The notes below the pieces were generated by a model. It had not been told where the DNA came from and searched no databases. It worked only from the letters and a program-made list of their open reading frames with translations. A stretch of DNA of 58,402 nt, the filler included, from Sluysia triapertura (taxonomy: Eukaryota), in NCBI GenBank assembly GCA_046118255.1. It is 4 parts of 4 records of this genome, joined end to end, with 100 filler letters (N's around TTAATTAATTAA, not from the genome) between each part and the next. Parts side by side here need not be neighbours in the genome. Positions count along the whole stretch, not along the records: positions 11,936 to 33,693 come from JBJNIA010247315.1; positions 33,794 to 47,325 come from JBJNIA010034155.1; 2 more parts are not named here. One strand, given 5' to 3'. Positions 14,058 to 46,624 of the stretch are shown here, piece by piece. The translations under genes were made by a program, and so were the position numbers. How positions within the stretch are numbered: position 1 is the first letter of the stretch; every line of letters begins with the position of its first letter.

Positions 14058-15796
14058 TGTGGTGGCCAACCTAATAACCTTAACCAATAAATTGATGTAA
14101 AATAACTAACCTAACCAATTGGCTAACCATTCAAAATACTTTAAAGACTATTTGATTGAACGGTCAAACAAGTTACAATAAAACCAGACAACCCAATAAA
14201 AATAAAAACAATAACGCTCATAAAAAGATAAAAGAAAGAAATTTTGTTAAGGCAAACAGTAAAAAAATTTTGAAGCCAGTACAAATAAAAAAGAAATAAT
14301 AAAATATTATCCCTTAACAAACAGTGAATCTGAATTTGGCTTGGTCAACTATCATCAAACTATTGTTGACGATCAGCAGAGTGCCTCAGATAATAATGAA
14401 ATAAAAAGATTTATAAAAGAAGGTGACGAAGAGATTGAAAAAGAAAGTAAATCATATAATTCAAATGAAAATCTTGATTACCAAATTAAAAAGGAAATCA
14501 TGAATAAAAGTAACCGTTATTTATTTACATGCTATGAATCTACTTTTGGTTTAGTCGACATTTATCAAATTGTCGTTAGTTATCAACAAAATGTTTCAAA
14601 CAACAATGAATATCTAATCCTAAGACATTATAAAAATGTTATTAACCATTTCGATTATTTCGACAAAATAAACCCCGATATTAATAATGACAAGTACAAA
14701 AATTGTATGAAATAATATTCAAAGAATACAATACAATTGTAAAGTCACCTTATAATCATATGCCTGATCAAGTTTATAAACAGATAAATTTTGATGATTT
14801 TTACAAATGTTATAAAATTGACCGCGATCTCATGTTTTATCATCATAAGAATCTTAACTATGATCAAGATAATAGAAATAAAGAAAAGAAAATTGTGAAA
14901 GCTATCCAACTTTTCAGTGACATTGATAATAAATATAAATCACGCGCTTATGAAAAAGATTATGAAGCTGATCTCTTTTCTTATCATAACTTCCACAAGA
15001 ATGATAAAACAAAACAAGTTTTTTTTTACTGGTAACGTTCTTTTCTTCGTATGAAATGGGAACCTGTTTAAAGAATTGAGCTGAATGCAATTACATACAC
15101 GGAATGACCAATACACAAATCCTAGAATTGTATGAAAGCATCCAGTTTATGGTCTCGCAAGCTGCTAGTAATAATCATACAGTAAAATCTAATAAAGTAA
15201 TATTAATTGTGTTTTTAGATAATTATTGTATTAAATTTTCTTTAGATAGTGAAGCATGGTGTATTCAAGAAGTTTATGCAGAAATAAACATGAGTATGTT
15301 AAAATTTGAAGTGTTAAGTTTGGAAATAATATTTGTTCGTTCACTTCCTTTGTATGATCAGTGTAATTTGTAATATATTATTAAACTTTGAAATAATAAG
15401 TAAATTTGACTCAAAACAAAAAATAAAAGAAGCAATTATTAGATCTATGGTGTAAAACTAACTATGGTGTAAATTTAAAACAGAGAATAGACTATTCACA
15501 AAAATATAAAACACCAAAAAATGAATCCATAAACAATTTATATCGTTGCAGTTTGACGTAAAACCCATCGTTCTTTAAAAGCATTTTAAGGCATATTTTA
15601 AAAAATATTTTTAGAAATTAAATTGTCATCAATTCAACTCTAATCAACAGACGTCACAATACAATAACTATAATTTCAATAAAGTTCATAATTCCATATT
15701 CATTTTGAGTTTAACATTAAGTAAACATACTCAAACATAAATTAACAAATATTTTTCTACTAATTATATATAATAAATAATGTCTTAAATACCACA
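14058..15796 (+). mobile_element. Candidate full-length non-autonomous LTR-type element carrying the CCCH-family ORF
   Basis: Begins TGTGGTGGCCAAC and ends ACCACA, flanked by AAATG/AAATA (5-bp TSD with one mismatch). A decayed TATGGTG restart plus CA-rich tract begins near 15446. One frameshifted ORF lies inside; no gag/pol motifs seen. Confidence 0.45.
14341..15373 (+). pseudogene. CCCH-family ORF copy A (finger degenerate)
   Basis: Three listed ORFs form one disrupted frame. KYKSRAYEKDYEADLFSYH (about 14931-14990) reads as a YKxxxC-x8-C finger with C>Y and C>F. RSFLRMKWEPV*RI matches copy F ESILSTLRIEPVFKI, and DRDLMFYHHKN matches copy B DDFIMWQIKN. Confidence 0.55.
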
Positions 15797-16610
15797 AAAT
15801 AATGTTTATCAATCGTTACATCTTCTTATTCATATCAGCATTCTACCAAAAATGTTTACTGCTTAATTCGAATAACTTAATATCAAAACATTCAATGGAA
15901 AATAATGAATGACAATTAATATTAGATAAGTACAGATGATAAATCAATGATTTAGTTATTGTATTATAATGGAAAATAAACATTTTTGTATTTTTTACTT
16001 TGTTTAATTTTAATTATTTAAATTTAACAATTGAAAAAAGGATTGTTTCAATATCATCTGGTTTAATCAAATTTTTAAACGTATGTCTAATATCAAGTTT
16101 AGTAAAAATTATTTTTCAAAACACACTAACAAACTATTATATTAATTACTAAAGTACATTTTTTAGAAAACTGAATCAAGAATCACTGCAAGTTAGAAGA
16201 AAACGTTAGAATAATTTTTGCTAGAGAGGCAGATAAACAATAGAGGTAAATGGGTTACAAAAAAATGCCCATTTTACTTTCACATTCCAATAAGGATAGA
16301 GAAAATAGACGAAGATTATTCAGAAATAGCTAATCAGATAGATAAACTGATTATTTAATATAAAACTATTATAATATTTTATAAATAATGCAATATAATA
16401 TAAAATATTAAGTCTCAAAAATGTATTTAAAATAAGAGAATCAGAACCACAGAGTGGAATTTACAGTGAAGATTATAATTATTGGAAAAAATTAAAAATT
16501 ATTTAAATAAAATTTGCTGTATTATTATGAAATTCTATTATATTTTGAAATTCATATATGATAATCATATTGACTAACATTATAAATTGTTCTATTCTTA
16601 TTTGTTAGGT

Positions 16611-17291
16611 TGTCATCACGACCATTTAAAATCACGAAAAATGCATTAAAATTATTTAAAAATCAATTAAAATGCTTTAGAAATCTTTGAAATTACTTTT
16701 AAAATATTTATTTTCCAAAAAAGAAAATTAGCTTCTAAAATGTTCTAGAACATTCTATCGATTTTCATTGGCTGATAACTAGTATATAAGTTAGCATCAG
16801 TACAATGAAAATCGCCATTTTGAAATCATCGCCATTGTGGATTTTATTTTGTTTTACAACTCAATCACTGGACAATCGTTGATTTAATCCATGATTAAAA
16901 TAATTTATTTTTATTAAGTTTATGTTAATTTCGTGTAAGGAAATTAATATAATAAAATTTACGTAAAATCAAAATCTGTTTAATAAAGTGTAAGGTTTCC
17001 CTGATATATTGAGGGGCAAAATACAGGAGTTGTTAAGTTAAATACTAGTTGTTAGTTTTAAATTTAATAAATTTTCATTAAAATTCAATCTTTATATTTA
17101 ACCCTACCGTTCCTTAATTTTATAAACAATTTATATTATTCAATTTTTGTAATTATTGTAATAAACGTGTTTTGAATTCTCTTTTTTGATTTCATTTATT
17201 GTATAATAATTCCAGCCCTTATTTATTAAGTTTTTTAGACCCTCTATCATTAAATTTTGTTAAATAGAGTCATTACACCCTCTTTACGACA
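16611..17291 (+). mobile_element. Solo LTR-like element (TGTCATCAC family), 681 bp
   Basis: TGTC...GACA inverted termini, flanks TAGGT/TAGGA, internal ATTGG (CCAAT) and TATATAAG boxes, AATAAA near 16982. Homologous copies at 12040, 13040 and 37226. Confidence 0.65.
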
Positions 17292-17939
17292 TAGGACGTT
17301 TTGCCGTAGGTTAAGATTTAAAAAACTGCAGTATAATTATCACATGTGATCCCTTTGTGGTTATAGTAGTGTATGATATATTTGTTTATCATTAAATGTA
17401 GTTTTGAAAGTGTTAATAATACAAAGAAAAACTTACCTTATTTCATTTAAAATTACTAAAAATAATATTACTAATATAAATAATGAGTGTTTAACAGTTT
17501 GGTAAATCAATTAAGTCAGTAACATTTATTCTGCTCATTGGAAAAGTTCGCGTATTAGATTCTTGTGTGACCCGAATAAAGAATTCATTTATTTTGCGAT
17601 AGAGAATTTTTTGAAAATATCATTGAGCTTTTTAATGTTAAGTTTAATCTCTGTTAGGAGATATAAAAATACTACTTAAAATCCTAATCATTACGTTTAA
17701 TTTCGGCTAGACACAAAATGACTCATATAATTCAAGCTGCTTTATTTCTTTCTCATAATTCATGAATTATCACATTAAAAATTTCAATAAAGTACTTTTT
17801 TTAAGAAAAATAAATATTAAATTAATTTATTTTCAAAAATTTACTGCAGTAATTTACGAATAAAAAGTATGTACAAAAAAGTAAAATAAAAATTAAATTA
17901 TTTTAGAAATTTCTTTTCAAATTATTTCGTAAAAAATAA

Positions 17940-18450
17940 AACTATATAGCAACCTGGCAAAATCAAACAGAACAAAATAAAACAAATGTCAAACGAATTA
18001 TTTTTTTAAAGTTTTTCTTGCTTTTCTTTTTATTTCTGTTGTTGCTTTTGTGACGTAGATTAGTTGAAGTACGTTTTTTAGCAAAAAAACTACATTCTCC
18101 TATTATTTTTCTGATTGTGCAGATAAAAAAGCATAAAGTATGATGCGAAACGGTGAATTTCAATAGCAACAAATTGTTAACAATCATAGTTATATTTTTC
18201 GCAAACGCTAGAATTAAGTAGTGTTGTTGCACAGGATTAAACTTTTAACTTTAATTTGCAATCTTACAGTTTCAGTAATTTATGAAATTGAGTTTTAGTT
18301 TGAAAGTCTAAGATTTAAAGCAGTTCTAAATGTTGAAGTTTGGTAGGTGAATTGTGAAATAAGTTAGACTTGAAGTTTGGATGTGTTGGTATATGTGTGT
18401 AAGTAGTACCATATGATTGCGTAAAAGGGTGAGAACACCACACCCTTTTC
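17940..18450 (-). mobile_element. 3' LTR-like copy of the TGTGGTG family with polypurine tract
   Basis: Minus strand reads GAAAAGGG|TGTGGTGTTCTC (PPT 18450-18443, terminus 18442), then a CA-rich tract and AGAAATAAAAAGAAAAG as in the 28073 and 43261 copies. It lies downstream of CCCH copy B on the same strand. Confidence 0.5.
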
Positions 18451-19065: not shown

Positions 19066-20260
19066 TTACTTTAAAAAAATCAACTAAGTAAAAGACATAA
19101 AACTACAAAATATATTACTAAAGATCGAAAAGAAATATATTACAATTTATTCCAAATAACAATAAAAATAAGTCAAAATTATTATTAGAAAAAATAAGAT
19201 TTTAAAAATGATTTTATGTTTAGCCTAAACTAAACATGATTTTTATTTTTGTCTCCTAATACTGATAGTTTCAAAATTTTTAAATCTCAGACACTTGTGT
19301 CAAAATTTGTGTTTTAAGATTTTTAACTTTTAAATAGATTTTTTTACATATTTACGTTTACATTTCATATAATCATTAAAGCTTAAATATTCTTTATTAC
19401 ATTGGATTATTTCCAAGATTTTTTTGAGCTTAATCAAATATATTATATTTAAATTTAAAAATTTAATGACTATTAATCTTGAAGTTTGTTTCTTACAGAT
19501 CATTTTCTTGACACGTTTCAAAAGCAAACTTTCCACGTTTCTATAAAATATTAAATATTAAAACGCAATTATAAAAGTATGAATGCGGTTAGAATGAAGA
19601 ATCAAGTTTACTTTTAAATTATGATACTTGTTATCGTTGAAAGATCTTTCGCTTGATGATGAAATCAGTTGTATTTTTTGCTTGTGATTCACTAACTGTG
19701 ACATCCACACTAAGTTATCCGAGATCTCAGCTACATTGTCTGCATACGAACAGTTACTGCCATACCTCGTGCATTTTCCAACAAGAGTCGCAGCATATAT
19801 GCACCAACCAGACTTAAAGTGTCATGACCCATCATCCAGATCTGATCATATCAATTGAGTTCCGATAGTAGACTAATCAGTTTGAAGGATGTTCTCTTTT
19901 AAAGAACATTCTTCAATGAGTATACTGCCGCTGACTGAACACTTTTGGGGCTTCCAGTTTTTTATTTCTTGAATTATTTCCGGTCTTCCTAATAATTTAA
20001 ACGCATCAAATTGACATATCTAAAATCGATCATGTTAAATTCGTTTTTAATTTGCCACATAATGAAGTCATCTTGTAAACTCTTTAATGTTACATTCGAA
20101 TCACGCTTATTAAAAAAATAAGGCATTATAAATAAGTCATTATTACTTAACTTAAAACGTTTGAGAATAATGTTTACTTCGCTTTCATTATGAATAAATA
20201 ATAGTAAAAAATTGCACTTTGAAAATCATTTTTCTGTAAGTTTTGATAAAACTCACAAAA
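19066..20260 (-). pseudogene. CCCH-family ORF copy B
   Basis: LLFIHNESEVNIILKRFKL...DDFIMWQIKNEF, finger HFKSGWCIYAATLVGKCTRYGSNCSYADNVAEI (final H>D), and C-terminus FSNIFCSFMSFT*LIFLK*. Stops and frameshifts. Confidence 0.75.
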
Positions 20261-20519
20261 CGTTTGTCTTAAATTATTGTTGTAGAGCTCTATTTAAACT
20301 TTGAATTTTATGTTTTACATTTTATATGAATTATTATTATGGATTTTTATTATAAAATTACTTTATGGAATATTTAAAAGTATGATTTTTATTATAAATT
20401 CTTAGTATAATTTTAAATTTTATTACATATTAAATTAACGTGATTAATAGAAAATTGAATTAAATTATTTTTAAATTAAGATAATTTTAAAATAAAAAGT
20501 TCAATGTTGGTATTTAAAT

Positions 20520-21290
20520 TATTTATGAAGGTTTACAATTTATTTAAAAATTACAAGAGGTACAGAATGTATCTTTTGGTAATTTGTTATCTGCTATTAC
20601 GAAATATGACGTATAAAAGAATTGATCAAGTTTGACAATGATTATATATGTTATGGTTGCATGAAATTGTAATTTCTTCGAAGATGAGATCATAGTTAAT
20701 TTTGAAGTATACATTGAAGTATACCTTCATGAACAGAAGGTATGTTCTTCTTCATAACGATATTAAGACTTATATTTCAAATATGTGTAAAATAAAACTC
20801 TATGAACTCTATGAATTTTATAAAAAATCATCAAAATAAATTATGGATACAAAATATTGAAAAATAGATGTTATTTTGATAAGCAACACAATAATTTACT
20901 TTTACATTTTAATTTATGGACCTTAGTAAAAATTGAACATAAAAAAATAATAATGGTTAAACATTTTAATTAATTTCATTATTCAGAAATATTGTTTGGA
21001 AAAAATACAGTTATTTAAATAAAAATATTATTTCTTGAACAATATATTCGTTGGCTACTGATACAGTAGGAATTTGAATATAAAACTTTTTCTGAAAAGA
21101 AACATCTATATCCAAAATACCAGATTAAGTGATATAAATATATCTATCGATATTTACAACGATGTACCAACAAAAATAAAACACTATAAGACAATTTCAA
21201 TTTTTTAAAAATTGCTTATGAATGCTTTTATAAAAATATATTTATCACTTTGAGTAGTTATAATTTTATGAAAATTATATATATTAATAT
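20520..21290 (+). pseudogene. CCCH-family ORF copy C (finger largely deleted), head-to-head with copy B
   Basis: QEVQNVSFGN matches copy F VQVQNISTN. C-terminal DNFNFLKIAYECFYKNIFITLSSYNFMKI matches the C-termini of copies D and F. Confidence 0.45.
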
Positions 21291-21479
21291 TAATATTATA
21301 ATTATCAAAAAATTACTTTCGAATATTAATTCATTCAAGAAAAGCAAAACAAAGTATAAATCACCAATAAAATTTCGTTATTCACTTGACAAATAAGATT
21401 TTTTCTTATAACAATTGAATTTTTGAAACTGTAATTCCCTTCATTAGTAGTTTGTCATTATCGTGATATCGAAAAAATT

Positions 21480-22420
21480 TCAGTGTCACTTTGACACTTT
21501 AGTTTAAACTAAATCCCAATTAGAGAATTAGTTATGATCAAAATCGATTTTATACTTGGAATATTCTACTTAAATTTAATATTTCAAGGTTAGTTATTTT
21601 AAGTCATCATTGTTATTTTTATTTGAATTAAAAGTACAGATTCAATTCGACATATTTGACATTTAAAAATGAAATTAATAGTTAATTTTTCAATTTTATT
21701 ATTCACATCAATTTGTAATAGTAATTGATTATTATTTATTGTAGATAATATGATTTTTAATAAAACTAAAAGCAATTTTTAGAAAATAAACAAAGCCTTG
21801 GTATTCCTTGTATTAGACATTATTTTGTATAAATGTTAATTTAAATTTTGAAAACGAAATATGGTACAGTTCAGAACTCCGTAGAACAAAAAATAAAAGA
21901 ATCCAATTTTACGTTTCAATTGATTATGTTATATAAATTATTAAAATAAAAATGTTCTATCTAATCACATTAAACGTCATTGTTTGAAAAATGTCGAAAA
22001 AAGAATTTATTTCAAAATAGAAGCATTAGTTTAGTGTGAAGGCAAGTTGAAGATATGTGTAGAAATTCTTAATTATTAAAGGGTCAATTTTTTGAAAAAT
22101 TAGATTTATGTCTGAAGAATTTAAAAGTTATTTAATTAAATAAAATTTTATTTATTACTTCTGGCTGAAAACATGGATTTCAGTAAAAATCACGATAAAA
22201 CATTAATTTTTTCATCTGGAACTCTACAATAAATCTACAATAACTCTACAATTATAAAGGTAAAAGTTTCTATTAATAATATTTTGTTAAAGAACAACTA
22301 TTACTGAAAAAATGAGTGTAATAAATTTCTGAATAAGTGTCTATTCCAGAATCTAATGCTTGAACTGTTTAGGAAATGTTATGCATAAGGTAAACACTTG
22401 GAGAATGGTCATAACATGAA
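21480..22420 (+). mobile_element. Highly decayed Helitron/Helentron-like relic (PIF1 C-terminus plus AP-endonuclease-like segment)
   Basis: In order: VQIQFDIFDI, KRIQFYVSIDYVI*IIK (cf. RxQFPLxLAYAITIHK), ITLN...LKNVEKRI, LLLLAETWI (cf. EEP-domain ETW motif) and ISVYSR. Many stops. Confidence 0.35.
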
Positions 22421-24127
22421 ATGATTTACTATTAGTTATACTATTAGTTATAATTTACTATTAGTTATTATAATATTATAATATTAGTTATACTTTCACA
22501 ACTAAAAATAATATTTTCTTTTTGGAAATACTGACAGAATTCTGTCATAGATAAATCTGAATAATTCATTCGACTTTACTCTTTTGGACCACTTATTCAA
22601 TAAAGCTTTTTTAAGTTTATTTTATTAAACTCTAAATCTGTATGGATAATAATCACCAACAAAAATTCATTACAATGGTCATTACAAATATTAAAATTTA
22701 AAGTTATTTCAGTAAGAAAAAACCCACACTTAACGCAATAACTTATAATAATTATATTAATCATAATAATGAAAATAATCAAAAATACTTTATTTTTAAA
22801 CTGTTAAATAATTTGTATTTTATTTTTTCATTTTGGTATAACATAAAATATCGTTCTTTGTTTATTTTTTTACATTTTTGTTTAGATTTATAAATGATTA
22901 ATACTAGTATTAATATAAATGTAATTATTATTTGCATTATTACAATAATTTTCACCTTAAGCATCACAAAATTGTATATTTTATATTTTCATTAATATTG
23001 ATTCTTCTTAATATCACCAATTTGATTAAATTCAAATTTAATGCATGCGCTGTATAAATTAAAACAAAATTATAAATACAATTTTTATTTAAAATAAAAA
23101 ACCTAAACTTTAATTTATATGATATGAAACTATTGTGTTTTTTTATAAGATAAGAAATTTTTAGGAAATACATTCTGAATTAATTTAATACTAATACGAA
23201 ACGTTGTGAACAAATCAAAATTAACCAATATTTTTTCTTACAATTTCACTGACTTTTGAAATAAAAACATACTTCATTAACAATATTTTGGAAAAATATT
23301 CTGGCATTGTCATGTTTAGTAATCAATTATCATTTATTGATAGAAAACTAAATATGTACAAATATCTGGTTAAATGAGATAATATATTGTTGTTTATTTT
23401 AATATCGGACAATATCTCATGTTTAACATGGTTTTGGTGAAGAATTTCTTAAATATTTAACATAAATTTTAAAATTTAAGATGTGAAAATGGAAAAAAGT
23501 AAACACGAAAGATCACTTAATCAACATTAATTAAAAATAGAATGTCATTGAGAACACATACGATTTTATTAACACAGACATGAACAAACGAATACTAACA
23601 AGCGCAAACAAATACATACCAAATAAATAAATAAATTATAATATGGCCAATATTACAGGAAAAATTTATTATTGAGACATGATAATCTATACAGAATCCA
23701 CAGTGATAATAAGCTAGGTGATAAGTTATATATATGTTTTATGTTTCCAAAATGTATAACCAGCTACAAAAGAATGTCACATTACTGGAATATTATGTAA
23801 TTTTTGAGTACTTATTTTGCAGTAGATATTATTACGAAAATACATATATTAAGATCATTTATGATTTTAACTATAGAAAAAATTTGCCAAATCATAAAAA
23901 TATAAATAAATAAATAAAATAAGTATAAAAATTTCAATTAATTTTATGTGAAAACTAAAATTTATTTTAAGTGAAGTTTATATAGATTAATAAAAATTAT
24001 TTATCAAATTTTAATTAATTAAATCAGTAATTAAATGAAGTTTGTTTTGAATAATAAAAGTGAAATAAAGGTTTCACTGTGTTTACTTTAATTTTCTATA
24101 CGAATCTCTAAAATATATTCTTTTCAA

Positions 24128-24185
24128 TTTCAAAAAATAAAACAGGAAAAATAAGCAAAAGTTAGACTTTTTATTTCTAAAAAAA
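24128..24185 (+). repeat. About 55-bp dispersed direct repeat, second copy at 27675-27730
   Basis: AAAACAGGAAAAATAAGCA(A/T)AAGTTAGACTT(T/A)TTATTTCTAAAAAA at both sites. Confidence 0.85.
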
Positions 24186-28072: not shown

Positions 28073-29200
28073 TGTGGTGGCCAACTTTATCATTCAAAAT
28101 CTTGAATACATTACAACATACTAAAGTTTACAATTGTACAACATTAAAACCATAAATTACATCAAAACCATTAAAGTTGTATTTTAAATTCAAATTTAGT
28201 AATATGTTAAATGTAATTTCGCTCAACACCTTCAATTTCATTAAATCTCTCTCTCAATTTCTCTTTTCTTTAATTTTTTATTATTCTTCTTTGTTCTCAT
28301 TTTATGTAATTTTATGTAATTGTAATCTTCCTTCAGCAATTAATTTTTGACACAAATTCTAAATTCAGCAGTTTGAAGCTTAATTACTTTAGCATTAGGC
28401 AATGGTTAAAAAAATTTGTAAAGTATTTAAGGCATTAGTAGAACGAGAAATTGCAAGAAGCATACCTGCTCAACAGGATCAGAACAATAGATAAGTTACG
28501 AACCGCAAAAATACTTGAACAAGATATACCTTCACAGATTCATAAATATAAGACAGAATCATATGTAAGAATAAATGAGTAAGAATCAAATCTAAGGAAA
28601 GAACACGAAGAACAAATTTTTAAGAAAGAAACATTTGTAAAAGATATAAAAAGAAATAAAAGAAATAAAAAGACAAAGACTTTATTTAAAGATCTGCATG
28701 CATCTATGTTATTCATTCTATTCTATTGTTGCTTTTTATATTCAATGTATCCAACCTCTTTAAGGCTACAAAAGAACAAATGTAAAAAATTTTGAAACAA
28801 GAAACACAATTAATGTCTAATAAAGAAATATGTAATGGTGAAGAATACATATTATCGCAGAAGAATTTAATTGTTGCATGTCTTTTTATTTTTATTCTAT
28901 CATTTATTATTATTTATTTTATTTTATTATTATTAATCTTACTTTATTTTATTATTATTATTATTATTATTAATTACATTATTACAAAGTTATTATCATT
29001 ATTGATTGTTATTTTTATTATTTACAATTTAATTATATTAACTGTCAGTTTGGACATTATTCAATTTGCTTTAGACAGTTTCTATCACCATGTTACAGTC
29101 CTTAATTGCAGAAATTTTTAATTAATATTGTGTCGCAACAAACTACCTACAAATTTTATTGGCTTTGTAATTTTTATTGGTAATCTTAATTGACTGACCA
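28073..29200 (+). mobile_element. 5' LTR-like segment of the TGTGGTG family
   Basis: TGTGGTGGCCAAC, CA-rich tract, AGAAATAAAAAGACAAAGA, then an ATT-rich tract. Colinear with 43261-44200 and upstream of CCCH copy D. Confidence 0.55.
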
Positions 29201-29419: not shown

Positions 29420-30332
29420 ATGATGCATAAAAGCAATGATCAAATTTTGAATATCTCCAAATATTTAAATAACTAGTTTTCTAAAATTTCCATACAACAA
29501 TATATTGATTCGATAATTTGGAGTAAAGTAATCAGTTATTTATTTGGTTCCACGTTAAAAAACAAGACAAATGATCAAACCAACCGATTAATAAATATGA
29601 TGTTAAACGAATTGAAAATTGTAATAATTTTTGAATCTAGTGCTTTTGATAATGATTTCTTAGATTCATTTATTTATTCTAATTTAATTCTGAAGAATGT
29701 CATCCATGAAATGAAACATAGTTTAAATGATGAAAACCTACTCACATAATCGATTCGCATAATCATTCTCATCAAAATACAAGAGATACAGAACCACCAA
29801 TTAATATATGTTATTACAAAAATGGTCAATGTGTTCTAGGTACTTCAGAAGCTGGCGAATGCCTTATGTATGGTAAACATTGTAAATATTTTCATAGCCT
29901 AACATATTTACAATGTCTTTCATATGATGACAAGATATTACTATGCATTCAGAACGAATTGCAAACCTATTGGCAACATTGAGATCAAAATCAATACTAA
30001 CAAGTCATTCCTTTATTAGCAATACATTTCTTGATATGTCAAACGATCTAGTTTTGAACAATTTAGGAACTTATGTTAAAAACAAAAATTCATTCTTTCA
30101 GGTGAACTATTATATTTCAAAGTTATATTATAATGATAATGATTTCGTCTATTCTTTCAGAACCAATAGTGGCATGTATAAATCAGCATATTCAAAACAT
30201 TTTAGGCTTTTGGCATTATATAAACGTTTTAGTTTAAACTGTTTGTTTAATAATTACATAAACTATGTATCAAATATATGTTCTGTTGTTACATTAATTA
30301 CTTATTCTATGAAGTTGTATTTGAAAAACTAA
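29420..30332 (+). pseudogene. CCCH-family ORF copy D
   Basis: Finger YYKNGQCVLGTSEAGECLMYGKHCKYFHSL (about 29811-29900), then a frameshift into HSERIANLLATLRSK...YSKHFRLLALYKRFSLN...SNICSVVTLITYSMKLYLKN*. Confidence 0.8.
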
Positions 30333-31744: not shown

Positions 31745-31799
<55 letters not shown>

Positions 31800-33556
31800 G
31801 AATACGTACTTTTAAATTTTGTAAATATATTTTAATAATTTCGTTATAAAATTATAGCTTTTTTACATATGTGAATTATAAAGCTGGATATATTGCATGA
31901 ACAAAAATCAGTGCTGAAAAATTGGAAACGTGCCGAATTTTCAATGAATCTTCATTTGATTTAACCAATATTAACTTTATTTTTGTTAATGCACTAATAT
32001 GTAACTGAATTATTTTGCATGATGACTTTGACAATTCTTTAATGCAATCTTCAATTATAAACATGTTTATCATTTTTATTTCTTTTGCAATTTACTGGAA
32101 AAATAAGTAAATATATTAACTTATTAATATTCGTATCGAATTAAATAAAGTTTATATAAAATAAGCGAAACATAACTTATAACACTTACCTAAATCAACA
32201 TATTTTGCAGATATATCCTGTTCTACTAAAAATGTTCATTAGAAGACACATTTTAGCAATTTTTTTCTGGTTGACACTTATTTTCTGGGCTTGATGGATG
32301 TGCAAAAATGAACATAACCAGAAATGTTGAAATACATTGGAAATAATAATATCATAGGCGACATCTGCTAATAATCTTCTAAGAAATTATTACGAATGTT
32401 TGAGAGCGTTATACGTCTTTAATTATTTGAAGTTCAATGTTTAGTATCATATTATTACCACAGATTAAATATAATATGATTTTGTATCTATATTGAATTT
32501 TTAAAAGCTTTTTTACATAAGAATTCTTTTAAACTTCTTCTTAAAGATGCATACTATCTTAGGTTTATCAATTAAGTGATACTTTATCAGTGTATTATTA
32601 TCGTTAAAGGTGATTAAAGTTTGTTTTAAATTTTATTTTTTTAATAATAGAAATAAGGTTTTTTTCAACATCAATACTCGATAGACAAAAAATTTAATTC
32701 ATTTGGTACACTCAATTCTATATTAATATTAAAATTTTAATTTTAATATTTCGTTCACTGACTCAACATGATCAACAAGAAAACGCCGCATTTTAATTTT
32801 AACGAATAATTACTTATCTTTAATTCAATTAAAAGTAAATAAGAAACGCATTAAATTCATATTAATAAATTTTATCAAAAAAAACAAATAGAATGAAGCA
32901 CTTACTATTATGTTCAAAAAATACAAAATTCTGCACAATTTAAATAAGCGATTTTTCGAAATTTGTCTACTTCGTCAATGGGTGTTTTACTTTTTTCAAT
33001 ATTTTCATACTTCTTCATACTATCTATCCTATTTAACGATACCGGTAGGAAGTACTGGTTCATTAATGCTATATCATATTTACATAAAGACGAAAATATC
33101 TATTTTAAATAAATTTTAATATTAATATATTTTTTAATATATTTTTTTCAATATATATTTTTCAATATATATTTTTCAATATATATTTTTTAATATATAT
33201 TTGTTAATATATTTTTCAATATATTTCTAAAACATCGTATATAAAATAAATAAATATAATTAATATTTAATAATTAAAAACACTTCAATTATTATCAAAA
33301 TATTTACAAAATGTAAAATTCAAAACATCCTAAAAAAGTGTACACGAAAAGTTGTAAAACTTAAAGTCAATTAAATTAATAATAAAAAGAAAATAGTTTT
33401 GTATAAACAAAATTTTTATAGAAGAAAATCGAAGTAATTTATTTAATGGGAAAGCAATTATTGTATTTTTATAAAAAAAATGATGCATTAATCACTATTT
33501 ATCCAATTTATGAAATGTAAGTAAATGGAAATAAACATGTTTCCTTAAAGTTAGTA

Positions 33557-33598: not shown

Positions 33599-33693
33599 TT
33601 AACTCTTGATGATCGAAATAATGTTATGCTACGAAGAAGTATTTCACAGAATGTAATGACTGTTAATATATTATTATAAGATATACATAGAGA

Positions 33694-37225: not shown

Positions 37226-37800
37226 TGTCTTCACAAATTTAATACAAAAAGGCAAGTAATATTATTAAATTCCTTCTAGAATTTTCGAGAAATTCCACTG
37301 ATTTTGATTGGTTGATAACTAGTACACATGTACTGCCATTAGTCTAATTTCTTTTCACAATTTATTAACGTGAATTAAAAAACACGAATTATAAGTAAAA
37401 AATTTGTTTTTGGACAACTGTCTTTTTCCAGAAGATCAACACCAAATTTATATCAATTCATTTGTAAAACTTTAGTAGAGAAATTTTAGTAATCAATTAC
37501 AAATTACCGATCCGTGACTATGTGTCGAGTTGGAAACAAAATTATCAACATTGATCAGTTTCAGCCGATTCAACCCAGCATTGTTCTTTTGAGTATTCAA
37601 TAAGTTATTTTTGTAAAGTAGCTTCAATCCCCGGGATTGAAATATTAAAATCTAACTTAAAATTTCATTTCATTTTTTATGCCCTGATTGAATTAGGGAA
37701 AAATTTATATTTAAAATCATAACATTTATAATTAAATTTCTCAAAAGATTTTAATTAAAAACTATCAATTTTTATTATCCCTTTTATTGTTAAGATAAGT
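37226..37800 (+). mobile_element. Diverged copy of the TGTCATCAC LTR-like family
   Basis: GTTAGGT|TGTCTTCAC...TTCTAGAA...GATTTTGATTGGTTGATAACTAGTA...CCCTGA..AGGGAAAAAT. Confidence 0.6.
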
Positions 37801-38151
37801 GTTGCCTTTATTGTTAAAATTAAAATTAACAGTAAAATATTAAAGTAGCTGTCAACATATTCTTAAAATTTCCATATTATCGGCAACGTTAATATCCAAT
37901 ATTTTAAATTCTATTTTTATGAAATATTTAAAGAAAATATAAAATACTTGATTGTTAATCGAAAACGTGAAAGGATAATAAATGAAACTATTATTTAAAA
38001 TTGAGAATATATAAAAATAGTACGAAACTATGAGAACAAAACTACTATGAAATATGCATGGAAAATAATAATAAGCTGTATCTGTAATGAAATGTAACTG
38101 AATATGAATTATAGAACTGAACAGTATGTATGAAAAGTAATAGTAATAGTA

Positions 38152-38213
<62 letters not shown>

Positions 38214-39722
38214 CTATGTACAAAAAAATAAAAATAAATGTAGTAATGAACTGATACGATGATGATAATAAACCATTTAAATTTATAAATTGTACATAAT
38301 AATAACTCTACATCAATTTTCTATATTTTGATAACTTTGTATAAATTTTAATAATAAATGCGTATATTATGAGTAATAAAATTAACAGTGATATTAAAAT
38401 TCTAACATTAACAATTGAGTCTTATAATAATTATCCATAATAAATTTTATATAAATCGCAATTTTATAACTGGGAAAAGAAGTATAAATAGCGGCGAAAG
38501 GAGTAAACAAAACACACGCAAGCTCAGATAAAGAAAAGAAAAGAAAAGAAGATATTGCAACGACTATTTTGGTGAAAGACAATACTAATTTAAATTTCAA
38601 CTCCCAACTTATTGATTCGAACATTTGTTTTGGACTAATTACATCCTGCTCTCAGAACTGTCTGGTAAGATAACTATTTCCAGTATAAATTTCGAGTATA
38701 TCATTTAATATAAATTACATTTTTTGATTAATTAAAAACAATTATAAACCAGTGTTTAATTTGAAATAATGAATCTCATTATTATCAAAATGTTTCTAAG
38801 ATTCTACGATTCTAAAAAACTATCAATTAAAGATGCAAATACTGATTCAATTGTTAGAAATATTGTATGATGAAAGATACAATATTCAAATTCATCATAA
38901 AGTTATTACAAATTGGATCATTGCACATGTAAGGAAAGTTATCAATTAAAGATGCATTAACTTATGAAGGATCCATCTTCTCAGCTTACGATTATTTCCT
39001 GTTGAAGATGAACATTTTAATATTGTGCTTATTATTGATTTACAAATATTAATTATAAATTTCTGTACCTACAATATCTATTTAAGTTTTTATTATGCTT
39101 ATTTTATTTTATCGGGACATTTTACAAAATTACTAAAACTCATAACCAAAATCTATTAGAATATTTAAAGTTTTTGGACTTTAAAGTATATTTAATAATA
39201 AATTGTAACGTTGTTAATCTGTTAGCTTGTACACATTCGTCAATTACAAGAGTTGTGATTATTTATATGCAACCACCAAAAAAAGTTAAAAAATTGCTTA
39301 CTCTTTGTAATTATACTTTAAATAAGTTTTAAAAATAAAAAGGGGATTAATATACAGTTATAAATTGTCATGCGTTGTTTGGTTAATTTTGCGCGTCATT
39401 TAAAACATCGTTAAAATATTATTACAGAAAGACTAAATATCTCTTGCTAAATTAACCTAGGTGTTACTAGAAATCTAATTTATAACGAATTATAAACTCA
39501 ACACTAATCCTATAATTAAGACATATTTCTATAAACCTATTTCAGAAGTTATTGTAAATATAAATACCTGAGTTAATTACTTGAAAAAGCTACTTAACTG
39601 TATTGCATTTAAATGCTATGGACAAGCCTTTAATTGTGTAAATCTCGGAGTATCACTGGCGAACTCTTTAATATAAGATTTTAAAATACAATTATCATTG
39701 CAGATTGTACACAGTAAACTAC

Positions 39723-39752
39723 ATCATGTAATACTCGCGAGTATTACATGAT
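39723..39752. repeat. Perfect 30-bp spacer-less palindrome
   Basis: ATCATGTAATACTCGCGAGTATTACATGAT equals its own reverse complement. Confidence 0.95.
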
Positions 39753-39976
39753 ACAGCTTAAAAACATAAATAAATAAAACTTTGTATTCTTATTTTTAAT
39801 ACGATCTTAACATTTGTGAGTGATACTAAATATTAAATTCTAAACCTTGACAATCGAAATATATTCAGTTTCAAAAGTTATTATATGGTGTTATAATACA
39901 TAATGAATATAGTAACAATATGTTTATTATGTAAAAAAGTTGCAGTTACCAAAAAACATTATTCAAACATTCATAA

Positions 39977-40133
39977 TTACTTCATTTCTGGCCGCTGACG
40001 CAGTAATGCGTCATTTTTTATTCGAAATCCAGTATCCGCTGGCGTAGTGATACGTTTTTTTTGACAGAATAACTTTGTTTGTGTTGCCATCAAACAGTCG
40101 ATTAAGAATTATTAACGGCCAGTTATGAGTTAA
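39977..40133. mobile_element. piggyBac-like MITE
   Basis: Left TTAC-TTCATTTCTGGCCG and right CGGCCAGTTATGAG-TTAA form imperfect TIRs with a TTAA target. Subterminal palindrome TGACGCAGTAATGCGTCA. Confidence 0.6.
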
Positions 40134-40713
40134 ATTCATAAATAATAAAATTACCAAATTTAATTAAAAATAATACAAAATTTCGTGATATCAGATGATG
40201 AAAACAGATTTTTGTCATGATAAAAATAAACTTGATTAAAATAATTTTAGAATCATGATAAAATTCGATTCAGTTTGAATTGTGAAATATTATTTATTAA
40301 ATTGATTTTTAAATAGTTTTTAAAAATTAATATTTAATATTTTTATTTAATTAATTATTTAGTAAAACCATTTTATAATGTTAAAGAAAAGTGTTTGATT
40401 ATAAGTTCGCTTCTAAATGATAACAATATCATAATTATAAAAATGAAAAATAATGTAAGGCATGCACGTCTATAATAAAAATGATACTTTGCGAAAATGG
40501 GTATCACGACTATATTAGTGTTTGTTAATAATGGATTTTAGTGATTCTAAATCCCAGTCGATATAAATAGTCAAATTTTAATGAGTACGCTTCTGATCCA
40601 GTTCTTGTTACTTATTTTAATGCTTATAAAATCAGAGGTTAACTTTTAATCTTAATGTACTTACTAATATCAAAACAATAAGGTTATTACGATATATATT
40701 TAAGTAATCCAAA

Positions 40714-41100
40714 TGTGGTGGCATTAAACCAAACTTACAATGTTATTATGTAGGTCCTCATATAAAAAAGATACTACAAAACTAATATTGTGCTTGTAGT
40801 GAACACGAAATCAACTGAATAATTACAAACATAAATAAATTATTAAACAGATTACTCAAAGTCATACAAAACACAAACACAGTTGTAATAATTTATTATT
40901 ACTGTAATATTACAATTATTATTATCACAATAATAACTATTGTCATAATAATACTAAATTGTTATAATAATTCTGTAATTATCGTTATAACCAATGTTGT
41001 TACTGTTGTAATAGTTACTATTATTGTTACAAATGTTTCATTCATTTCTTTCCTTTTGGTACATACGTTTATGTAATGCACATGTTAATTGTTTCTCGCA
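40714..41100 (+). mobile_element. LTR-like terminus of the TGTGGTG family (diverged)
   Basis: TGTGGTGGCATTAAACC, then CA-rich and ATT-rich tracts. Confidence 0.4.
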
Positions 41101-41699
41101 TTTTATCATTATTGTTTATTTCTACATGATTTTATAATTGAAGTATTAATGAAATTTCTATCTAAACAGAATAATACGTAATTATTTAAATCCGAAGTTG
41201 ATAGTTTACAATGAACAATTTTTAAGTACTAATGATTAATTCAAAAATACAAAATGCGACCGTCGAAAGTAAATTTTGTTCCAAAATCATAAATTCTATT
41301 TACTGTCGATTTTAGTGATTTAGATTCTCATCGCAATGGGAAGCATAATGATACATCATCAATTTGAAAGAAATATCAAAAAAGTAAAACTAATCATTCA
41401 AATAAAATTAATCATACGAAAGCGTTTAAAATTGGGTTTAAAAGAACCAATTAAATCACAAAAACTTCAGTGAAATGTAGATCTACGATGAACTGAAAGA
41501 AAATTATAATTATACAATTATACAATTATTACAATAAATTTAAGAAGTCAATACAATAAATACGAAAAGTCAAAACATGAATTAAAGGAAAAATTGGTTA
41601 CACTTAGAAGGTAATTCCAAAAATAAAAATACTTATAATTATTACAAAAATAACAAAATTATAAAAATTGAAAAAACATCGATATTGGTAATAAAATGT

Positions 41700-42215
41700 A
41701 TGATAATAAAGTTACTTTTTCTGGGCCACATGAATTTTATCAGCTCGGAACAAACTCGTTAAATAATTCAAAACTACTATATTATAAATGGTTTCATTTT
41801 CAATTTCATTCATTGTGTACTTGCATTTCATTGTCATATGGTTTAGAATTCACTAATTTTTGTTGTAAATACGTATTTGTATTTGTAATTATATAACATT
41901 CATTATAATAGAAGTGACGTATCTTATTTTAAAAGTCAATTGATTTCAGAAATTTGTTTTGAAATTTATCCAGTTTTTATAGGTATAGTATGCTTATTTA
42001 CATTGTTAATATTCTTTAATAATTTTAATCATTCAATTTTCGTATATATTATACAAGGCACATTATATGGAAGCTTTCGATATAATAGACCATGGCTTAA
42101 TTATAATATTTTTAATTGTAAAAATTCTATTTCTTTAGGTCATAAAGTATTCATGGCCAGTGTTATCCTATATCGAGTATTATGAGTACGTTAGATACAA
42201 TACATATTAATCAGT
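41700..42215 (-). pseudogene. Maverick minor capsid (penton/PX) N-terminal relic
   Basis: YVLYLTYS*YSI*DNTGHEYFMT, PKEIEF, LPYNVPC, TIPIKTG and SEIN*LLK resemble PX FYLTLPSNSS..YPDNT.S.F.T.LPK.IEL / WYNV / IPPGYY / EIN. Confidence 0.5.
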
Positions 42216-43260
42216 ATATTTATCATTATTAATTATACTGCATCTACATCTACATCTACATATATATAATTTGTTTTGGAATAGAAGTTTTATTTTTTTG
42301 TTAATTTGTTTACGATAAGTTATTCTATCTTTGTTAAAGGCCATAAGCCTAAAATTTATATTCATAAAGTTCAATTAATTTTTGAAAATTTAAAAATAAA
42401 AATAGTAAAAATTTTAGTCAACATTTTTATAAAGATTATATTTTATAATTTGTTCAAAATTAAGAAATATAATAATGTTAGTATTAAGTATTAAAATACC
42501 ATGTTAATATTAAAATATATAAAAATAGAAATTTTTTCTGTATGTATTTTCTAGATTTCGTAAATAAATTAGTACACATTATTTTGTAAATAAAAAGTTG
42601 ATATTTATTGATTTTTTTAATTTAAGGAATTAACATTAACTTTGATATAAAAATAAAGGAGTTAATATTAATTTGAAGTAAGTATTTAATTGCAATTTAA
42701 TTAAAATAATTATGAAAATAATTTTATTAAAATAATTATCAAATGATAAAAATTAGAAATGCAAAATGTATATATTTATTTTCATTTTGTTTGAGTTTAG
42801 ACCTTCAAGTTAGTTTTTTCTTTATAAGTTTTAGGCCATTTTAAATTTTGCATTATAACAGATTTTCCATTATATAGAAAATCTTATAAAATCTATAATT
42901 ATATTATATTTTTTATTTTTATTTTGTTTGTTGATTGTAACTTTTTAACATTTATTTAATAAATTTTCGAGTTAGCCAACGGCGTTCTAATTACCAAAAA
43001 AGTTTTAAAATTTTGTCAGATTTTTACGGTTCTTAAATAGAACCGAAGAAAAAATTTTCCTTTTATTGATTCCATTTAAAAAAGGAATAAAAGGAAACTT
43101 CTAATATGTTGTTAATAGGTTCTATTTAATTCTGAACCTAAGAAAACTATAAATTAATTAAAATTCTTTATAAGGATTTTGGTTTTATTTAATAAGAGAA
43201 CCACACAAAATACAGTAAGTATATTCGACATCTTAAGAAAACAAACGAAACCCAAATTAG

Positions 43261-44230
43261 TGTGGTGGCCAACCCAATAATTTGAAATTTTACATCAACA
43301 AGATATAACAAAATCACATCAGAATATTTCATAATTGTAACTATCTTCAAACATTCTAAACATAAAATTTCATTACATCGAAAATCATCAAACATATACT
43401 TAAAAATTAATTTAAAACTTTTTAAATTTAATTCAACATATCACACATTCCATAACATTTTAACTATTTTCCATCAAAACCTTTTATCCTTTAGTTCTTT
43501 CAGATCCACTAAAAACATTTTTAAATTTACAACCCTACTACACAAAAACCATATCCACTTTCAAAACCATCAATCTACATCTTAAAATCAATCCAAAATA
43601 TTTCAAATTTACAATTTTTAACATTCAATCTTTAATATCACTCAAAATATTAAATCAACACTTTGAAATCCTTTTTAGAGAGTGCAATCAAATTGTTACT
43701 TCTTTAACATCTTTAGTTACGTATTATTTTCTTTAAACATTCTCCTATCAACCCTTTCTACACATTACATATAGTAATCACTGAACAAGGTCTTTTCAAA
43801 AGAATCTTAAAAGAAGTCCATTTTTATATAAGAAATCATTTGCAATGAATTTTAAATATGTCAAGAAATAAGATAAGATACAATAAAAATTCATGTTAAT
43901 ACAAAAAAGACAAAGATTTATGTTTTTTTACAATTCATTTCATTTTATTTTTCTTTATAATTATTATCATTTCCGTCATTTTTATTATCATTAATATTTA
44001 TTATTATTATTACTATAATTATTATGATCATTACTAATTCTCATTAATTTTAATTAAAAATTTTTATTTAGTGGTTTCTGTATAGTCATTACTGATAATT
44101 ACCCATAGATTGGCATGTAGGACTTATTTTTGTCTGATTGGACGTCCATTCGACTTCTTTTTGCAACTCGCATAACTGTATTATTAGTAGACGTCCAATC
44201 ACGACACAAAATCCAATCAATATAAACAAA
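43261..44230 (+). mobile_element. 5' LTR-like segment of the TGTGGTG family
   Basis: TGTGGTGGCCAAC, long CA-rich tract, AATAAA...AAAAAGACAAAGA, ATT-rich tract, then TTGGCATGTAGGAC (possible PBS near 44110). Upstream of CCCH copy E. Confidence 0.55.
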
Positions 44231-44329
44231 TTAAAATTAGTTTTGTTATTAATTTTTCAAAACAAAGTAAAAAGTAAACAGTTTTACACAAATTAAAAAG
44301 TAAATATTTTTAAAAACTTTAAATTAATG

Positions 44330-44589
44330 CAATCTGTTACTGCTCTGTAGTAGTAAAATCATTTCATTACAACATTGTCATGAATAGAACATTTAGTTTT
44401 TGGTTTTATATTTTATTCGAATATGTTGATGAAAAGTCAGTACTCAACTTTAATGGAAAAGATAATTTTAAAAATCAACATATTGTTCATTCTGATACTT
44501 GTATGTATATAAAAGATAAGAGATTTAAAGATGGATGTGAACTATTGCGATGTTTTAAAGACTATGGTGATTTATTAGGCCAAATTTAA
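44330..44589 (+). pseudogene. CCCH-family ORF copy E (heavily deleted)
   Basis: TFSFWFYI matches copy D LFIWFHV. KRFKDGCELLRCFKDYG is a shortened FKxGxC...CxxYG finger. Confidence 0.45.
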
Positions 44590-45739
44590 CTACAAATAAA
44601 AAATTTATTTTAGTTAGTATTGTCCAAGTTTAGTGGAGATACAATAAAATAAAACAGAATTTTAACGTGAGTCCACAAACGTACTAGGCTTACCAGTTAG
44701 AGCTAGCAGTTGGATTTGTAGATAAGATTTTTAAGTAATGGGAAGAAAGAATCATCTAAAGTGTAGCTTTCGCTAAAGTATTTCTTACTTAATAATTCGA
44801 TTATTAACTTCGATATAAACTGTCCAAGGTATACGTGATTTTGCTATTATTACCTTTCGATTTTAGTAGGATCTGGAGGTATACAATTTATTTTTAATTA
44901 AAGTAATTAAATCAATAGTTTAGTAAGTATTTTACGATGATCCTATGAAAAGGATCTATAAAAATGATTTTTCGTGATTAGACTTAAATTCTAATCGTTG
45001 AAAGTGTAATCTTCGATAGATTTTATATTTAAAACTGTAATTTTAAAAGACAGTAAACGATTACGTAATATGAAAATTAATAAAGGATTTTACAATGATA
45101 TAAAAAATAATAATTTGCGAGGAATTGGTTTAATTACTATCTCAATAATATTATAAAGCAGATTTTACGCTAGATCTATTATAAGATCTAATAAATTAAT
45201 TAAAAATTATTTTGCCTGTATTTTAAGAGGATGTTTTTACACATATCCTATCTTAATATAAACTAACTAATTATTTTTGCACAAGTTGCTAAACAGCTTC
45301 ACGAATTCTCTTGACAAATTAATTGACTAAATTGTATGAAAAATCTTGTAAAAGTGTTAACAAATTTCGTGGTTATTTATACTTGTTTTAGCCTGACCTT
45401 GGCCATACTAAAACAAATTATTTTATTTAATATATTAAAACAAATTATCATTTACTAATTAAAAATTAATAATTTAACTAATTGAAAACTAATTATTAAT
45501 TAAAAACAATTAATGTAAATATTAATCAAATAAAAACTAAAAATCACTTATTAAAATTACTTTAATATATTACTCCAAAATAAATAATATAAGTCATAAA
45601 TATTAAACATCAATAATTTTGTATCAGTAAAATTATGTACACATTATTCAATATTACTCATAACACAACAGTATGTTTCATGAATTGCTAGAAGTATCAC
45701 CGAAAATTATAAATTTTTTGAATTGTAAAAGTAATAAAA

Positions 45740-46624
45740 TTTATGTAAGAGTAGTGCAAGTACAAAACATTAGTACAAATTTTGACTAAACGATTTTACG
45801 CACTTCAATCCAAACAATTAAATGTAAATTGTTTATTCATTGAATTATATCATGGCAAATAAAAATAAAAGCATTCGTACATTAATTGTATCGGTTAATG
45901 ATCAAGTTACAGGAAATTTTATTAATATATTTTTAACTTATCATAAATATAGTAGATATCAATTCTTTAGCCATGACTAATAAAGTGAAATCATTAGAGA
46001 CAACATTGTCAAATGATAATTCAAAAGCTAACCATTTCAAATCGTTCTATAATGGGAATAAAACTCTACAAATGGCTCTCTGTCCGTATACGTCCACTCC
46101 AACTGGTGAATGTTACAAACACGGCAAAAATTGCGTTTACTGCCACACAATTTATGAATTTCATTATGTTCCCGGTTATCCAGCTTGCTTCGTAGATCAT
46201 TGTCTTAGGATAGAATCCATCTTATCAACTTTGAGAATCGAACCTGTTTTCAAAATCTAGTTTCCAATGTCAACAACATTATAAATGGTAGTTTTACTAA
46301 AGTTTCAGACAATTCTATGATGGAGAGTCAAATGGTAATAATTATATATTTTCACTTGAATTTTAATAACTTAAATCATTTTTATTTGTTATATTTTTTA
46401 GAATAATCTATGAATACTCTGAGTGGCATAACCGGAAAATAATAAAGCAATTCACAAACATAATTTTGTTTGATTTAGATTTAGTAAAAATAACTACTTT
46501 TAGCTCTTATTTTCGTTTATCAATAAATTTTAAAAGAATTAACTTCAATTTTTTTGTAAAATTCGTAAAGAAATAAGTTTGACAATATTTTTCAATCATT
46601 GCCTACACTTTTCTTCAAAAATAA
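45740..46624 (+). pseudogene. CCCH-family ORF copy F
   Basis: VQVQNISTN, ISWQIK, finger (LYK)MALCPYTSTPTGECYKHGKNCVYCHTIYEF, HCLRIESILSTLRIEPVFKI*, and C-terminus FSSYFRLSINFKRINFN...SIIAYTFLQK*. Confidence 0.8.

Follow-up and report, generated by a model that had tools for sequence, protein, structure and literature searches.

Has a family of long terminal repeat (LTR) retroelements in Sluysia triapertura taken up a gene for a CCCH zinc finger protein? The question arises from a stretch of 58,402 nucleotides, filler included, of assembly GCA_046118255.1 (the window, meaning this whole stretch), in which a sequence-only reading had described about six disrupted paralogues of one CCCH open reading frame (ORF) as the only cargo of an LTR-type element. 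That observation is real but overstated: the window holds solo-LTR-like repeats together with three or four dead paralogues that carry a finger of the Unkempt type. The coordinates of the features are collected in Table 1.

By its sequence, the finger is finger 3 of Unkempt, C-x9-C-x6-C-x3-H with a YYK lead-in and the adjoining linker. The Pfam search took in 126 of 129 stop-free segments with a length of at least 55 amino acids (aa), three low-complexity ones being excluded. As a result, an UNK-like CCCH finger was seen in three segments, 19561-19821 (-), 29734-29979 (+) and 45937-46257 (+), which lie in the ORFs termed B2, D and F. Positions 29767-29943 of D, with the first Cys at 29830, aligned over 59 residues with zinc fingers (ZnF) 1-3 of Unkempt (PDB 5ELH, E=1e-6), from the last His of finger 2 through the linker and finger 3 into the residues beyond, whereas the best non-Unkempt CCCH chain gave E=0.15. 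The Pfam matches had E=1.7e-6 for D and E=1.4e-5 for B2 (zf-CCCH_UNK). An Unkempt profile hidden Markov model (HMM), made from the first 420 residues of 56 named proteins (of 120 listed) with the RING region outside it, matched D at E=6.6e-9, B2 at 2.4e-4, the further ORF A at 0.053 and F at 0.18. All four matches fell on finger 3, and only profile positions of about 88-157 rose above the null. F and A were weak when taken alone, F being tied to the family through D and B2. A search of 1.84 billion representatives with D returned four matches, namely three Unkempt fragments of 33-38% identity (P0002-P0004, identified via relatives of P0004 and by alignment to Unkempt motifs) and one repeat artefact. 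The latter (P0001) was the top library match at E=7e-20 and stemmed from 17 repeats in an unrelated protein of 3273 aa. The set contained no relative closer than these.

Besides the spacing, D shares with Unkempt (UNK/UNKL; Pfam PF25427) the terminal His of finger 2, a TxDTE linker and the residues after the finger. The two differ in that Unkempt has six fingers in two clusters, while a single finger was found here, in three or four broken and divergent copies with an unrelated C-terminus and 33-38% identity. Similarity to fingers 1-2 was not significant (p=0.11-1.0 for the best local score and 0.05-0.66 in a second test), the likeness of B2 and F to this part being seen by eye only. Fingers 4-6 were not found by the profile, and F aligned to finger 5 only with large gaps. 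By-eye extensions of D to fingers 4-6 and of B2 and F to fingers 1-2 were likewise not significant. The copies were rejected as a six-finger Unkempt orthologue because only the finger-3 region matches. For the C-terminal 133 aa of D there was no Pfam and no usable atlas match; a single-sequence AlphaFold model of this piece had a predicted local distance difference test score (pLDDT) of 43.8 and was not used.

An assignment of the finger to the ZFP36/TIS11 type had been proposed earlier. ZFP36/TIS11 proteins carry a tandem pair of C-x8-C-x5-C-x3-H fingers. A CCCH finger with a basic/aromatic lead-in is common to them and the copies, but the latter have a single finger of x9/x6 spacing, and tristetraprolin matched B2 at only E=0.84-1.4, so that Unkempt finger 3 takes the place of this assignment. 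In the binding data excerpted from PMC12136788, ZnF1-3 of Unkempt binds A/U-rich RNA at about 2.4 µM and ZnF4-6 binds UAG at about 0.4 µM. A derivative with one finger would bind A/U-rich RNA weakly at best.

Seven regions were compared in frameshift-aware alignments (21 pairs). The pairs among D, F and B2 scored 69-74 and the other 18 scored 36-55, against a null with a median of 45 and a 99th percentile of 72.8 (n=725). In a separate test, D-F and B2-F scored 72 and 68, above the nulls. A D+F profile recovered B2 at 112, the null maximum in 100 shuffles being 74.7. A was its best remaining match at 58-60 (null 95th percentile 60-63), and no signal was seen at three further copies of the sequence-only reading, B (19066, -), C (20520, +) and E (44330, +). 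Openness, with frameshifts allowed, was expressed as the share of 600 null windows that were as open. This share was 0.007 for A and D and 0.058 for F and B2; with 0.18, 0.74 and 0.86, C, E and B were no more open than random DNA. D, F and B2 are thus robust paralogues, and A is a probable fourth. Within the original set of six, D and F are firm, A is probable, and B, C and E fall away, since they have no finger and are not open; E moreover overlaps the inverted L1-related fragment at 44260-44695. The amplification of a CCCH ORF itself stands, with three or four copies in place of six, including B2, whose finger at 19803-19738 (-) had been overlooked.

The last His of the B2 finger is replaced by Asp. 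F has a complete C-x9-C-x6-C-x3-H at 46081-46146, and A has a probable Unkempt-type finger at about 15030-15103 with one stop inside it, as well as an internal duplication (14307-14400 and 14517-14610). From its ATG up to the finger, D is collinear with F (p=0.0016 for the first 30 aa, p=0.0096 for 136 aa and p=0.056 in a gapped shuffle test), the ATG of F having been picked by eye as the first in frame. The first finger Cys is codon 137 in both, compared with codons 111-138 (10th-90th percentile) in the 56 named Unkempt proteins. This collinearity is what survives of a proposed shared N-terminal block, for which D fell below p=0.05 in none of ten regions and F in one (p=0.045). The proposed C-terminal block did not hold, as D gave 0 of 10 regions and E gave 1 of 10, and not to D. 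A short inverted repeat at 29870-29920 lies inside the D finger, with the minus strand echoing the finger sequence. Behind the start at 40714, positions 41281-42293 (+) were weakly similar to the DNA of the F region (p=0.015, the best non-overlapping of 55 pairs) and include a 98-codon open stretch at 41889; no finger was detected, and this region may be a further copy, the fifth, in a more advanced state of decay.

No copy in the window is able to make a finger protein, every one being broken before or within the finger. There is one stop in 368 codons in A, one in 302 in D, four in 195 in F and three in 145 in B2, against a background of 8.5% per codon; A and D have two frame breaks each. 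In a 31-codon block around the finger, identical bases among D, F and B2 numbered 45, 51 and 28 of 93 at codon positions 1, 2 and 3, compared with 23.9, 24.5 and 27.9 expected from composition, the values at positions 1 and 2 being inflated because the block was chosen for protein similarity (ascertainment bias). Identity at chance level at position 3 nevertheless shows long divergence as coding sequence, and saturated third positions in combination with few stops argue for several long-selected sources and a recent death. The copies are therefore not successive neutral retrocopies of one gene, but would go back to three or four sources under separate selection, each of them active until not long ago.

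The 13-mer TGTGGTGGCCAAC occurs exactly at 14058, 28073 and 43261, always on the plus strand, as first reported (three occurrences against 0.01 expected; 0 of 100 shuffles reached three). TGTGGYG is found six times in the window, at 3892, 14058, 28073, 40714 and 43261 (+) and at 18442 (-). Since 2.3 are expected and 6 of 100 shuffles reached six, one or two of these may be due to chance. The terminus at 18442 (-) is preceded by GAAAAGGG, again in agreement with the sequence-only reading. Table 3 of PMC3601003 gives 5' TGTGGYG and 3' MSYYAMA as the integrase motifs of the CsRN1 clade, along with AATAAA and a downstream GT-rich stretch. All six occurrences fit this 5' motif, and two of them start TG...CA units with duplications, which bears out their interpretation as LTR-type termini.

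The 300 nt behind the six starts are C-rich and G-poor, with skews of 0.40, 0.20, 0.43, 0.18, 0.80 and 0.41 (background 95th percentile, 0.28). The DNA downstream of the starts pairs up at merely 51-55% identity. Based on local shuffles, with pairs selected from many comparisons (190 in one set), 28073 and 43261 are related from the first base (p=0.005 with the 13-mer and p=0.010 without it), and the DNA downstream of 3892 is related to that downstream of 40714 (p=0.005). The unit at 18442 is related to 3447-3844 (p=0.010) and to 44695-44260 on the minus strand (p=0.003). Upstream flanks of the starts were unrelated (p=0.36 for 28073/43261, and p=0.73), and the 14058 unit showed no similarity to the 28073 or 43261 units past the motif (p=0.27 and 0.51). 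The 13-mer was also considered as a primer binding site (PBS), which is recopied from a tRNA; this was rejected for 28073/43261, where homology runs downstream from the motif. At 3892 a PBS reading is possible, and TGTGGTG there may be an LTR start or an LTR end plus a PBS-like word. Conservation of the 13-mer would reflect its role as the integrase-bound end and not close kinship of the copies.

L1 and L2 are solo-LTR-like units with TG...CA inverted termini and target duplications. For L1, the GC-rich duplication matches at five of five positions (18447-18443 and 17355-17351). When 150-4600 nt were scanned behind seven starts, 17356 was the single end with a perfect duplication for 18442 (-); a hand estimate from base composition puts the chance at about 2e-4 per candidate end. 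GAAAAGGG had been taken for a polypurine tract (PPT). Because the purine run 18443-18450 contains the AAGGG that recurs directly after the inverted terminus 1087 bp away, a target-site duplication is the better explanation. The L2 end is an exact MSYYAMA, the sole exact 3' motif among the ends listed for 28073, and homology between L2 and L3 stops at 29149, two bases from the L2 end. Its duplication matches at four of four positions but is AT-rich. MSYYAMA is at chance frequency window-wide (55 observed, 55 expected), so that only position and duplication count as evidence. In L3 no recognisable 3' end and no duplication were found. AATAAA with a T-rich tract, seen by eye in L1 (about 420-500 nt in), L2 and L3, is common in DNA of 77% AT. 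We infer that the solo LTRs of about 1.08 kb derive from several diverged Ty3/Gypsy-type lineages via LTR-LTR recombination.

With the CsRn1 clade (CsRn1, PwRn1, AgCR) the units have in common the 5' TGTGGYG in six of six starts, MSYYAMA (exact in L2, one mismatch in L1), a duplication of 4-5 bp and, as a candidate feature seen by eye, AATAAA followed by a T-rich tract. CsRn1-like elements are described in the relevant sections of PMC2582038 as having LTRs of 146-407 bp, 4-bp duplications, a tRNA-Trp PBS and a CHCC gag. Such LTR lengths (146-407 bp for 14 AgCR elements, and 381 bp for PwRn1) contrast with about 1.08 kb here, the duplication of L1 has 5 bp in place of 4, and the units in the window are solo only, with neither a tRNA-Trp PBS behind L2 nor a CHCC gag/pol. 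As only the termini agree, resemblance to the clade is claimed and not membership.

The ORF had been regarded as cargo inside an element. This is contradicted for D, which starts 269 bp past the L2 end at 29151, and for B2, which ends about 1.1 kb before 18442: L1 and L2 have their own duplications, and D and B2 are thus not their interiors. A and F, in contrast, may be enclosed: weak duplications (4 of 5 positions) go with ends at 15796 and 46699, the latter of which shares 14 of 15 bases with that at 32462. No long direct-repeat pair was found by self-blastn and a repeat search of 11990-33690 and 33800-47320, in which the longest non-tandem repeat families had 40-60 nt, and in view of the low decay of the ORFs paired LTRs, if present, should be easily visible. 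There was no 5' LTR for B2 at 20200-21300 (p=0.22) and no 3' LTR for A at 15400-16500 (p=0.59). A PBS was not seen behind L2, where no TGG lies within 5 nt of the end, and inspection of the TGGYG sites by eye gave no tRNA-like word except, weakly, at 3894. Pfam was applied with stops as X to 20400-28070 and 47426-58402 in six frames, to 30330-32470 and 44700-45670 on the plus strand and to four short stretches, the rest of the window being scanned as stop-free segments only. In line with the earlier claim, no gag, reverse transcriptase, RNase H or integrase family was matched in the stretches scanned; the stops-as-X scan found Pif1, DUSP and SIKE and two sub-threshold matches. Terminal-repeat retrotransposons in miniature (TRIM) are defined by paired short terminal direct repeats with a PBS and a PPT, a combination that was not found in the window.

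Table 1. Finger ORFs, LTR-like units and related sites in the window
Feature	Position	Strand	Properties
ORF A	14263..15373	+	368 codons in three frames; breaks near 14700 and 15035; HMM E=0.053
ORF B2	19561..20140	-	Stop-interrupted; 5' limit approximate; outside L1
ORF D	29420..30332	+	302 codons; stop at codon 19; frame breaks near 29745 and 29938
ORF F	45673..46260	+	195 codons, one frame, four stops before finger; Pfam E=0.0029
L1, solo-LTR-like	17356..18442	-	1087 bp; TGTGGTG...AACCACA; perfect 5-bp duplication AAGGG
L2, solo-LTR-like	28073..29151	+	1079 bp; 13-mer start; ACCTACA end; 4-bp duplication AATT
L3, LTR-like	43261..44217	+	13-mer start; collinear with L2, 52-55% identity
Inverted L1-related fragment	44260..44695	-	464 columns, 51% identity, p=0.003; above all 6 window-wide nulls
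LTR-type 5' terminus (13-mer)	14058..14070	+	Candidate far end 15790-15796 with 4/5 duplication, would enclose ORF A; weak
TGTGGTGG start and C-rich DNA	40714..41010	+	Related to 3892-4170, p=0.005; no finger detected behind
L1-related segment 3447-3844, then TGTGGTG at 3892	3447..4170	+	p=0.010
15-mer ending TACCACA	32448..32462 and 46685..46699	+	Common only to these two sites

The explanation that we tentatively prefer is that a fast-evolving gene family of Unkempt descent is decaying in a graveyard of LTRs. What suggests a host family is that the solo units have duplications of their own, that ORFs lie outside these units, that LTR pairs are lacking and that there is a broken SIKE copy without a 13-mer, which means that decayed gene copies without this motif do exist in the window. 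Such a family would consist of lineage-specific, uninterrupted ORFs of 200-370 codons built around Unkempt finger 3, to which homology was demonstrated above, and would probably go back to a copy of unkempt that was made from RNA and truncated to the 5' part. After multiplying, its members diverged, with selection acting on the protein, to the point of saturation at synonymous sites (a finding subject to the ascertainment bias noted), and the few lesions show that these copies died recently. The intact source proteins most likely bound zinc and, weakly, A/U-rich RNA, and would have had neither the UAG-reading fingers 4-6 nor the RING. LTRs would have inserted near the finger loci, and L2, upstream of D in sense orientation, may have served as a promoter. 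Several observations weigh against this explanation. The window has dead family members only, as is typical for copies of an element but less so for a cluster of genes, and there was no intact member among the 1.84 billion representatives. A full 5' retrocopy of unkempt is not supported, as homology to fingers 1-2 was not significant. Each of the four fingers points the same way as the TGTGGTG start nearest to it, the only minus-strand finger adjoining the only minus-strand start, and A begins 205 bp after the 13-mer, where a 1.08-kb LTR would run. Moreover, AT-rich 4-bp duplications are cheap: L2 has a second, poorer AATT end at offset 282, and 40714 shows four ends with CAAA duplications.

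The shared orientation of fingers and starts would be explained by another idea, possible though doubtful, in which a Ty3/Gypsy lineage with CsRn1-like termini has the ORF as an accessory gene. An ancestor would have captured part of the unkempt mRNA by template switching. Subfamilies would have kept the finger under selection, either to bind the AU-rich RNA of the element or to compete with host RNA-binding proteins, and the window would contain their nested, truncated remains. Several contemporaneous, mutually saturated and recently dead sources fit element subfamilies, the LTR starts lie 0.2-2.4 kb from the fingers in the same orientation in four of four cases, and L2 and L3 are related while D and F are the closest collinear pair. 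The missing LTR pairs, the separate duplications of L1 and L2 and the lack of both a PBS behind L2 and a gag/pol family in the scanned stretches speak against it. The more specific joint claim, that a CsRn1-like Ty3/Gypsy lineage captured finger 3 of Unkempt, a neural translational regulator, kept it under purifying selection across several subfamilies and used it as a single-finger accessory RNA-binding protein (for RNA packaging or stability, or as a decoy against host control of AU-rich RNA), the fossils possibly being non-autonomous TG...CA cassettes, we consider unlikely. Cassettes without duplicated LTRs, moved by an integrase in trans and spanning 14058-15796, 28073-32462 and 43261-46699, would each enclose a finger ORF and come closest to what had been claimed; a TACCACA indeed follows each 13-mer at a distance of 1.7-4.4 kb, a finger ORF lies in each interval, two right ends share 14 of 15 bases found nowhere else in the window, and two of three intervals have 4/5 duplications. 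We nevertheless regard them as improbable, since the right ends are preceded by unrelated DNA (p=0.29-0.43 in all four tests), and since in 922 of 2000 trials the best such 12-mer match among 20 random sites was at least 9. In addition, the interval 28073-32462 lacks a duplication, and 29151 is a better end for 28073. The 15-mer pattern was derived from 32448 and 46685 themselves, and 14 of 100 shuffles gave two matches at two mismatches; the site at 32448-32462 is possibly the right end of a larger unit or a minus-strand LTR start. The inverted termini have just 6 bp, far below the terminal inverted repeats of Ginger1 and Ginger2 (40-270 bp or 50-180 bp in the summary data of PMC2836005), and Ginger DNA transposons were rejected for this reason. 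Very improbable, finally, is that the fingers belong as exons to spliced host genes that are alive, or to intact genes that assembly errors have damaged. The host has spliced genes (the USP20/33-like exons) and the scaffold has three gaps, but in-frame stops lie inside or just before the fingers of A, B2 and F, D and F keep exact codon spacing across lesions, a nearby host ORF of 328 codons is intact, and the D finger is 33-38% identical to Unkempt, whereas named animal orthologues are mostly 55-93% identical to an Unkempt fragment.

Precedents exist for parts of these explanations. LTR-mediated capture and re-amplification is documented in animals in the portion of Tan et al. 2016 (PMC5131818) that deals with LTR-mediated retrocopies. 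As here, these are uninterrupted, truncated host sequences beside an LTR in more than one copy; they differ in that they replace part of the interior between two LTRs, with microsimilarity at the junctions, are young and are nearly identical to the parent, while the window has no pair and shows protein-selected divergence. Host-derived accessory domains of planarian Burro elements and GYPSM1, and extra ORFs of bdelloid elements, are a precedent for invertebrate retroelements that keep such domains (PMC6431247). They belong to identifiable elements with gag-pol, and the text of that review contains neither "CCCH" nor "zinc finger". Loss of unkempt in a mite is the subject of PMC7738191. In the literature searched, with most subscription journals and the repeat databases lying outside it, there was no report of retroelement capture of an Unkempt finger, and nothing on an additional ORF with CCCH in an LTR retrotransposon.

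Masc is a CCCH protein. The Plutella Masc retrocopies known as Pxyfem are likewise partial gene copies clustered in a transposon graveyard (PMC9674220), but Pxyfem acts as RNA complementary to its parent, whereas the copies here are saturated and protein-selected. Unkempt is well conserved among animals, and one-finger, saturated paralogues imply a hidden fast-evolving family, whatever the vehicle. If the vehicle were a retroelement, this would be a new kind of captured accessory gene, in which a transposon had borrowed an RNA-regulatory module from its host; if it is instead a host family next to solo LTRs, it would be a modest lineage-specific curiosity.

The window has a GC content of 23% and contains AAT microsatellites. 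N gaps lie at 11836-11935, 33694-33793 and 47326-47425, placing 14058/28073 and 40714/43261 on separate contig pieces. Each gap consists of two runs of 44 N on either side of an AT spacer of 12 bases, which has stops in every frame; AAT runs follow directly after two of the three. Judged by its genes, the window is animal DNA, because it has spliced USP20/33-like exons and an intact UBX/FAF-like ORF. The USP20/33-like exons lie at 48000-49010 (-) and include a Pfam DUSP domain, the best named matches of the USP20 exon among 16 matches being from bivalves (50-54% identity); a GC-richer, coding-like stretch is located nearby at 49400-50078 (+). The UBX/FAF-like ORF at 51736-52722 (+) is intron-free with 328 codons and an atlas score of 0.93. 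It gave no Pfam match and no sequence homologue at E<=0.001 and is possibly a fast-evolving retrogene. Positions 36545-36720 (-), without a Pfam match, we take to be the probable last exon of an HSD17B10-like dehydrogenase.

Further repeats and gene relics were observed. Two tRNA-like sequences in opposite orientation, 12963-13021 and 35874-35932, are 76% identical and are possibly heads of short interspersed elements; neither ARAGORN nor Rfam called them, both programs giving zero matches in the window. A separate short dispersed repeat is present at 13148-13226, 16732-16821 and 37273-37331 (76-83% identical). At 1650-2150 (-), a putative decayed retroviral-type integrase was seen by eye, presumably of Maverick/Ginger style; the Pfam scan was negative there. 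The SIKE/FGFR1OP2-like gene copy at 9490-9900 (+; Pfam SIKE E=1.6e-5) is uninterrupted by introns but broken by stops and a frame change, and beside it runs a C-rich, G-poor tract at about 10900-10280 (-) with weak resemblance to the 43261 unit. A Pif1 helicase 2B fragment at 27407-27604 (-; Pfam E=7e-12) is probably a relic of a Helitron, and a repeat of 53-59 nt is found at 24127-24185 and 27674-27731 (92-93% identical).

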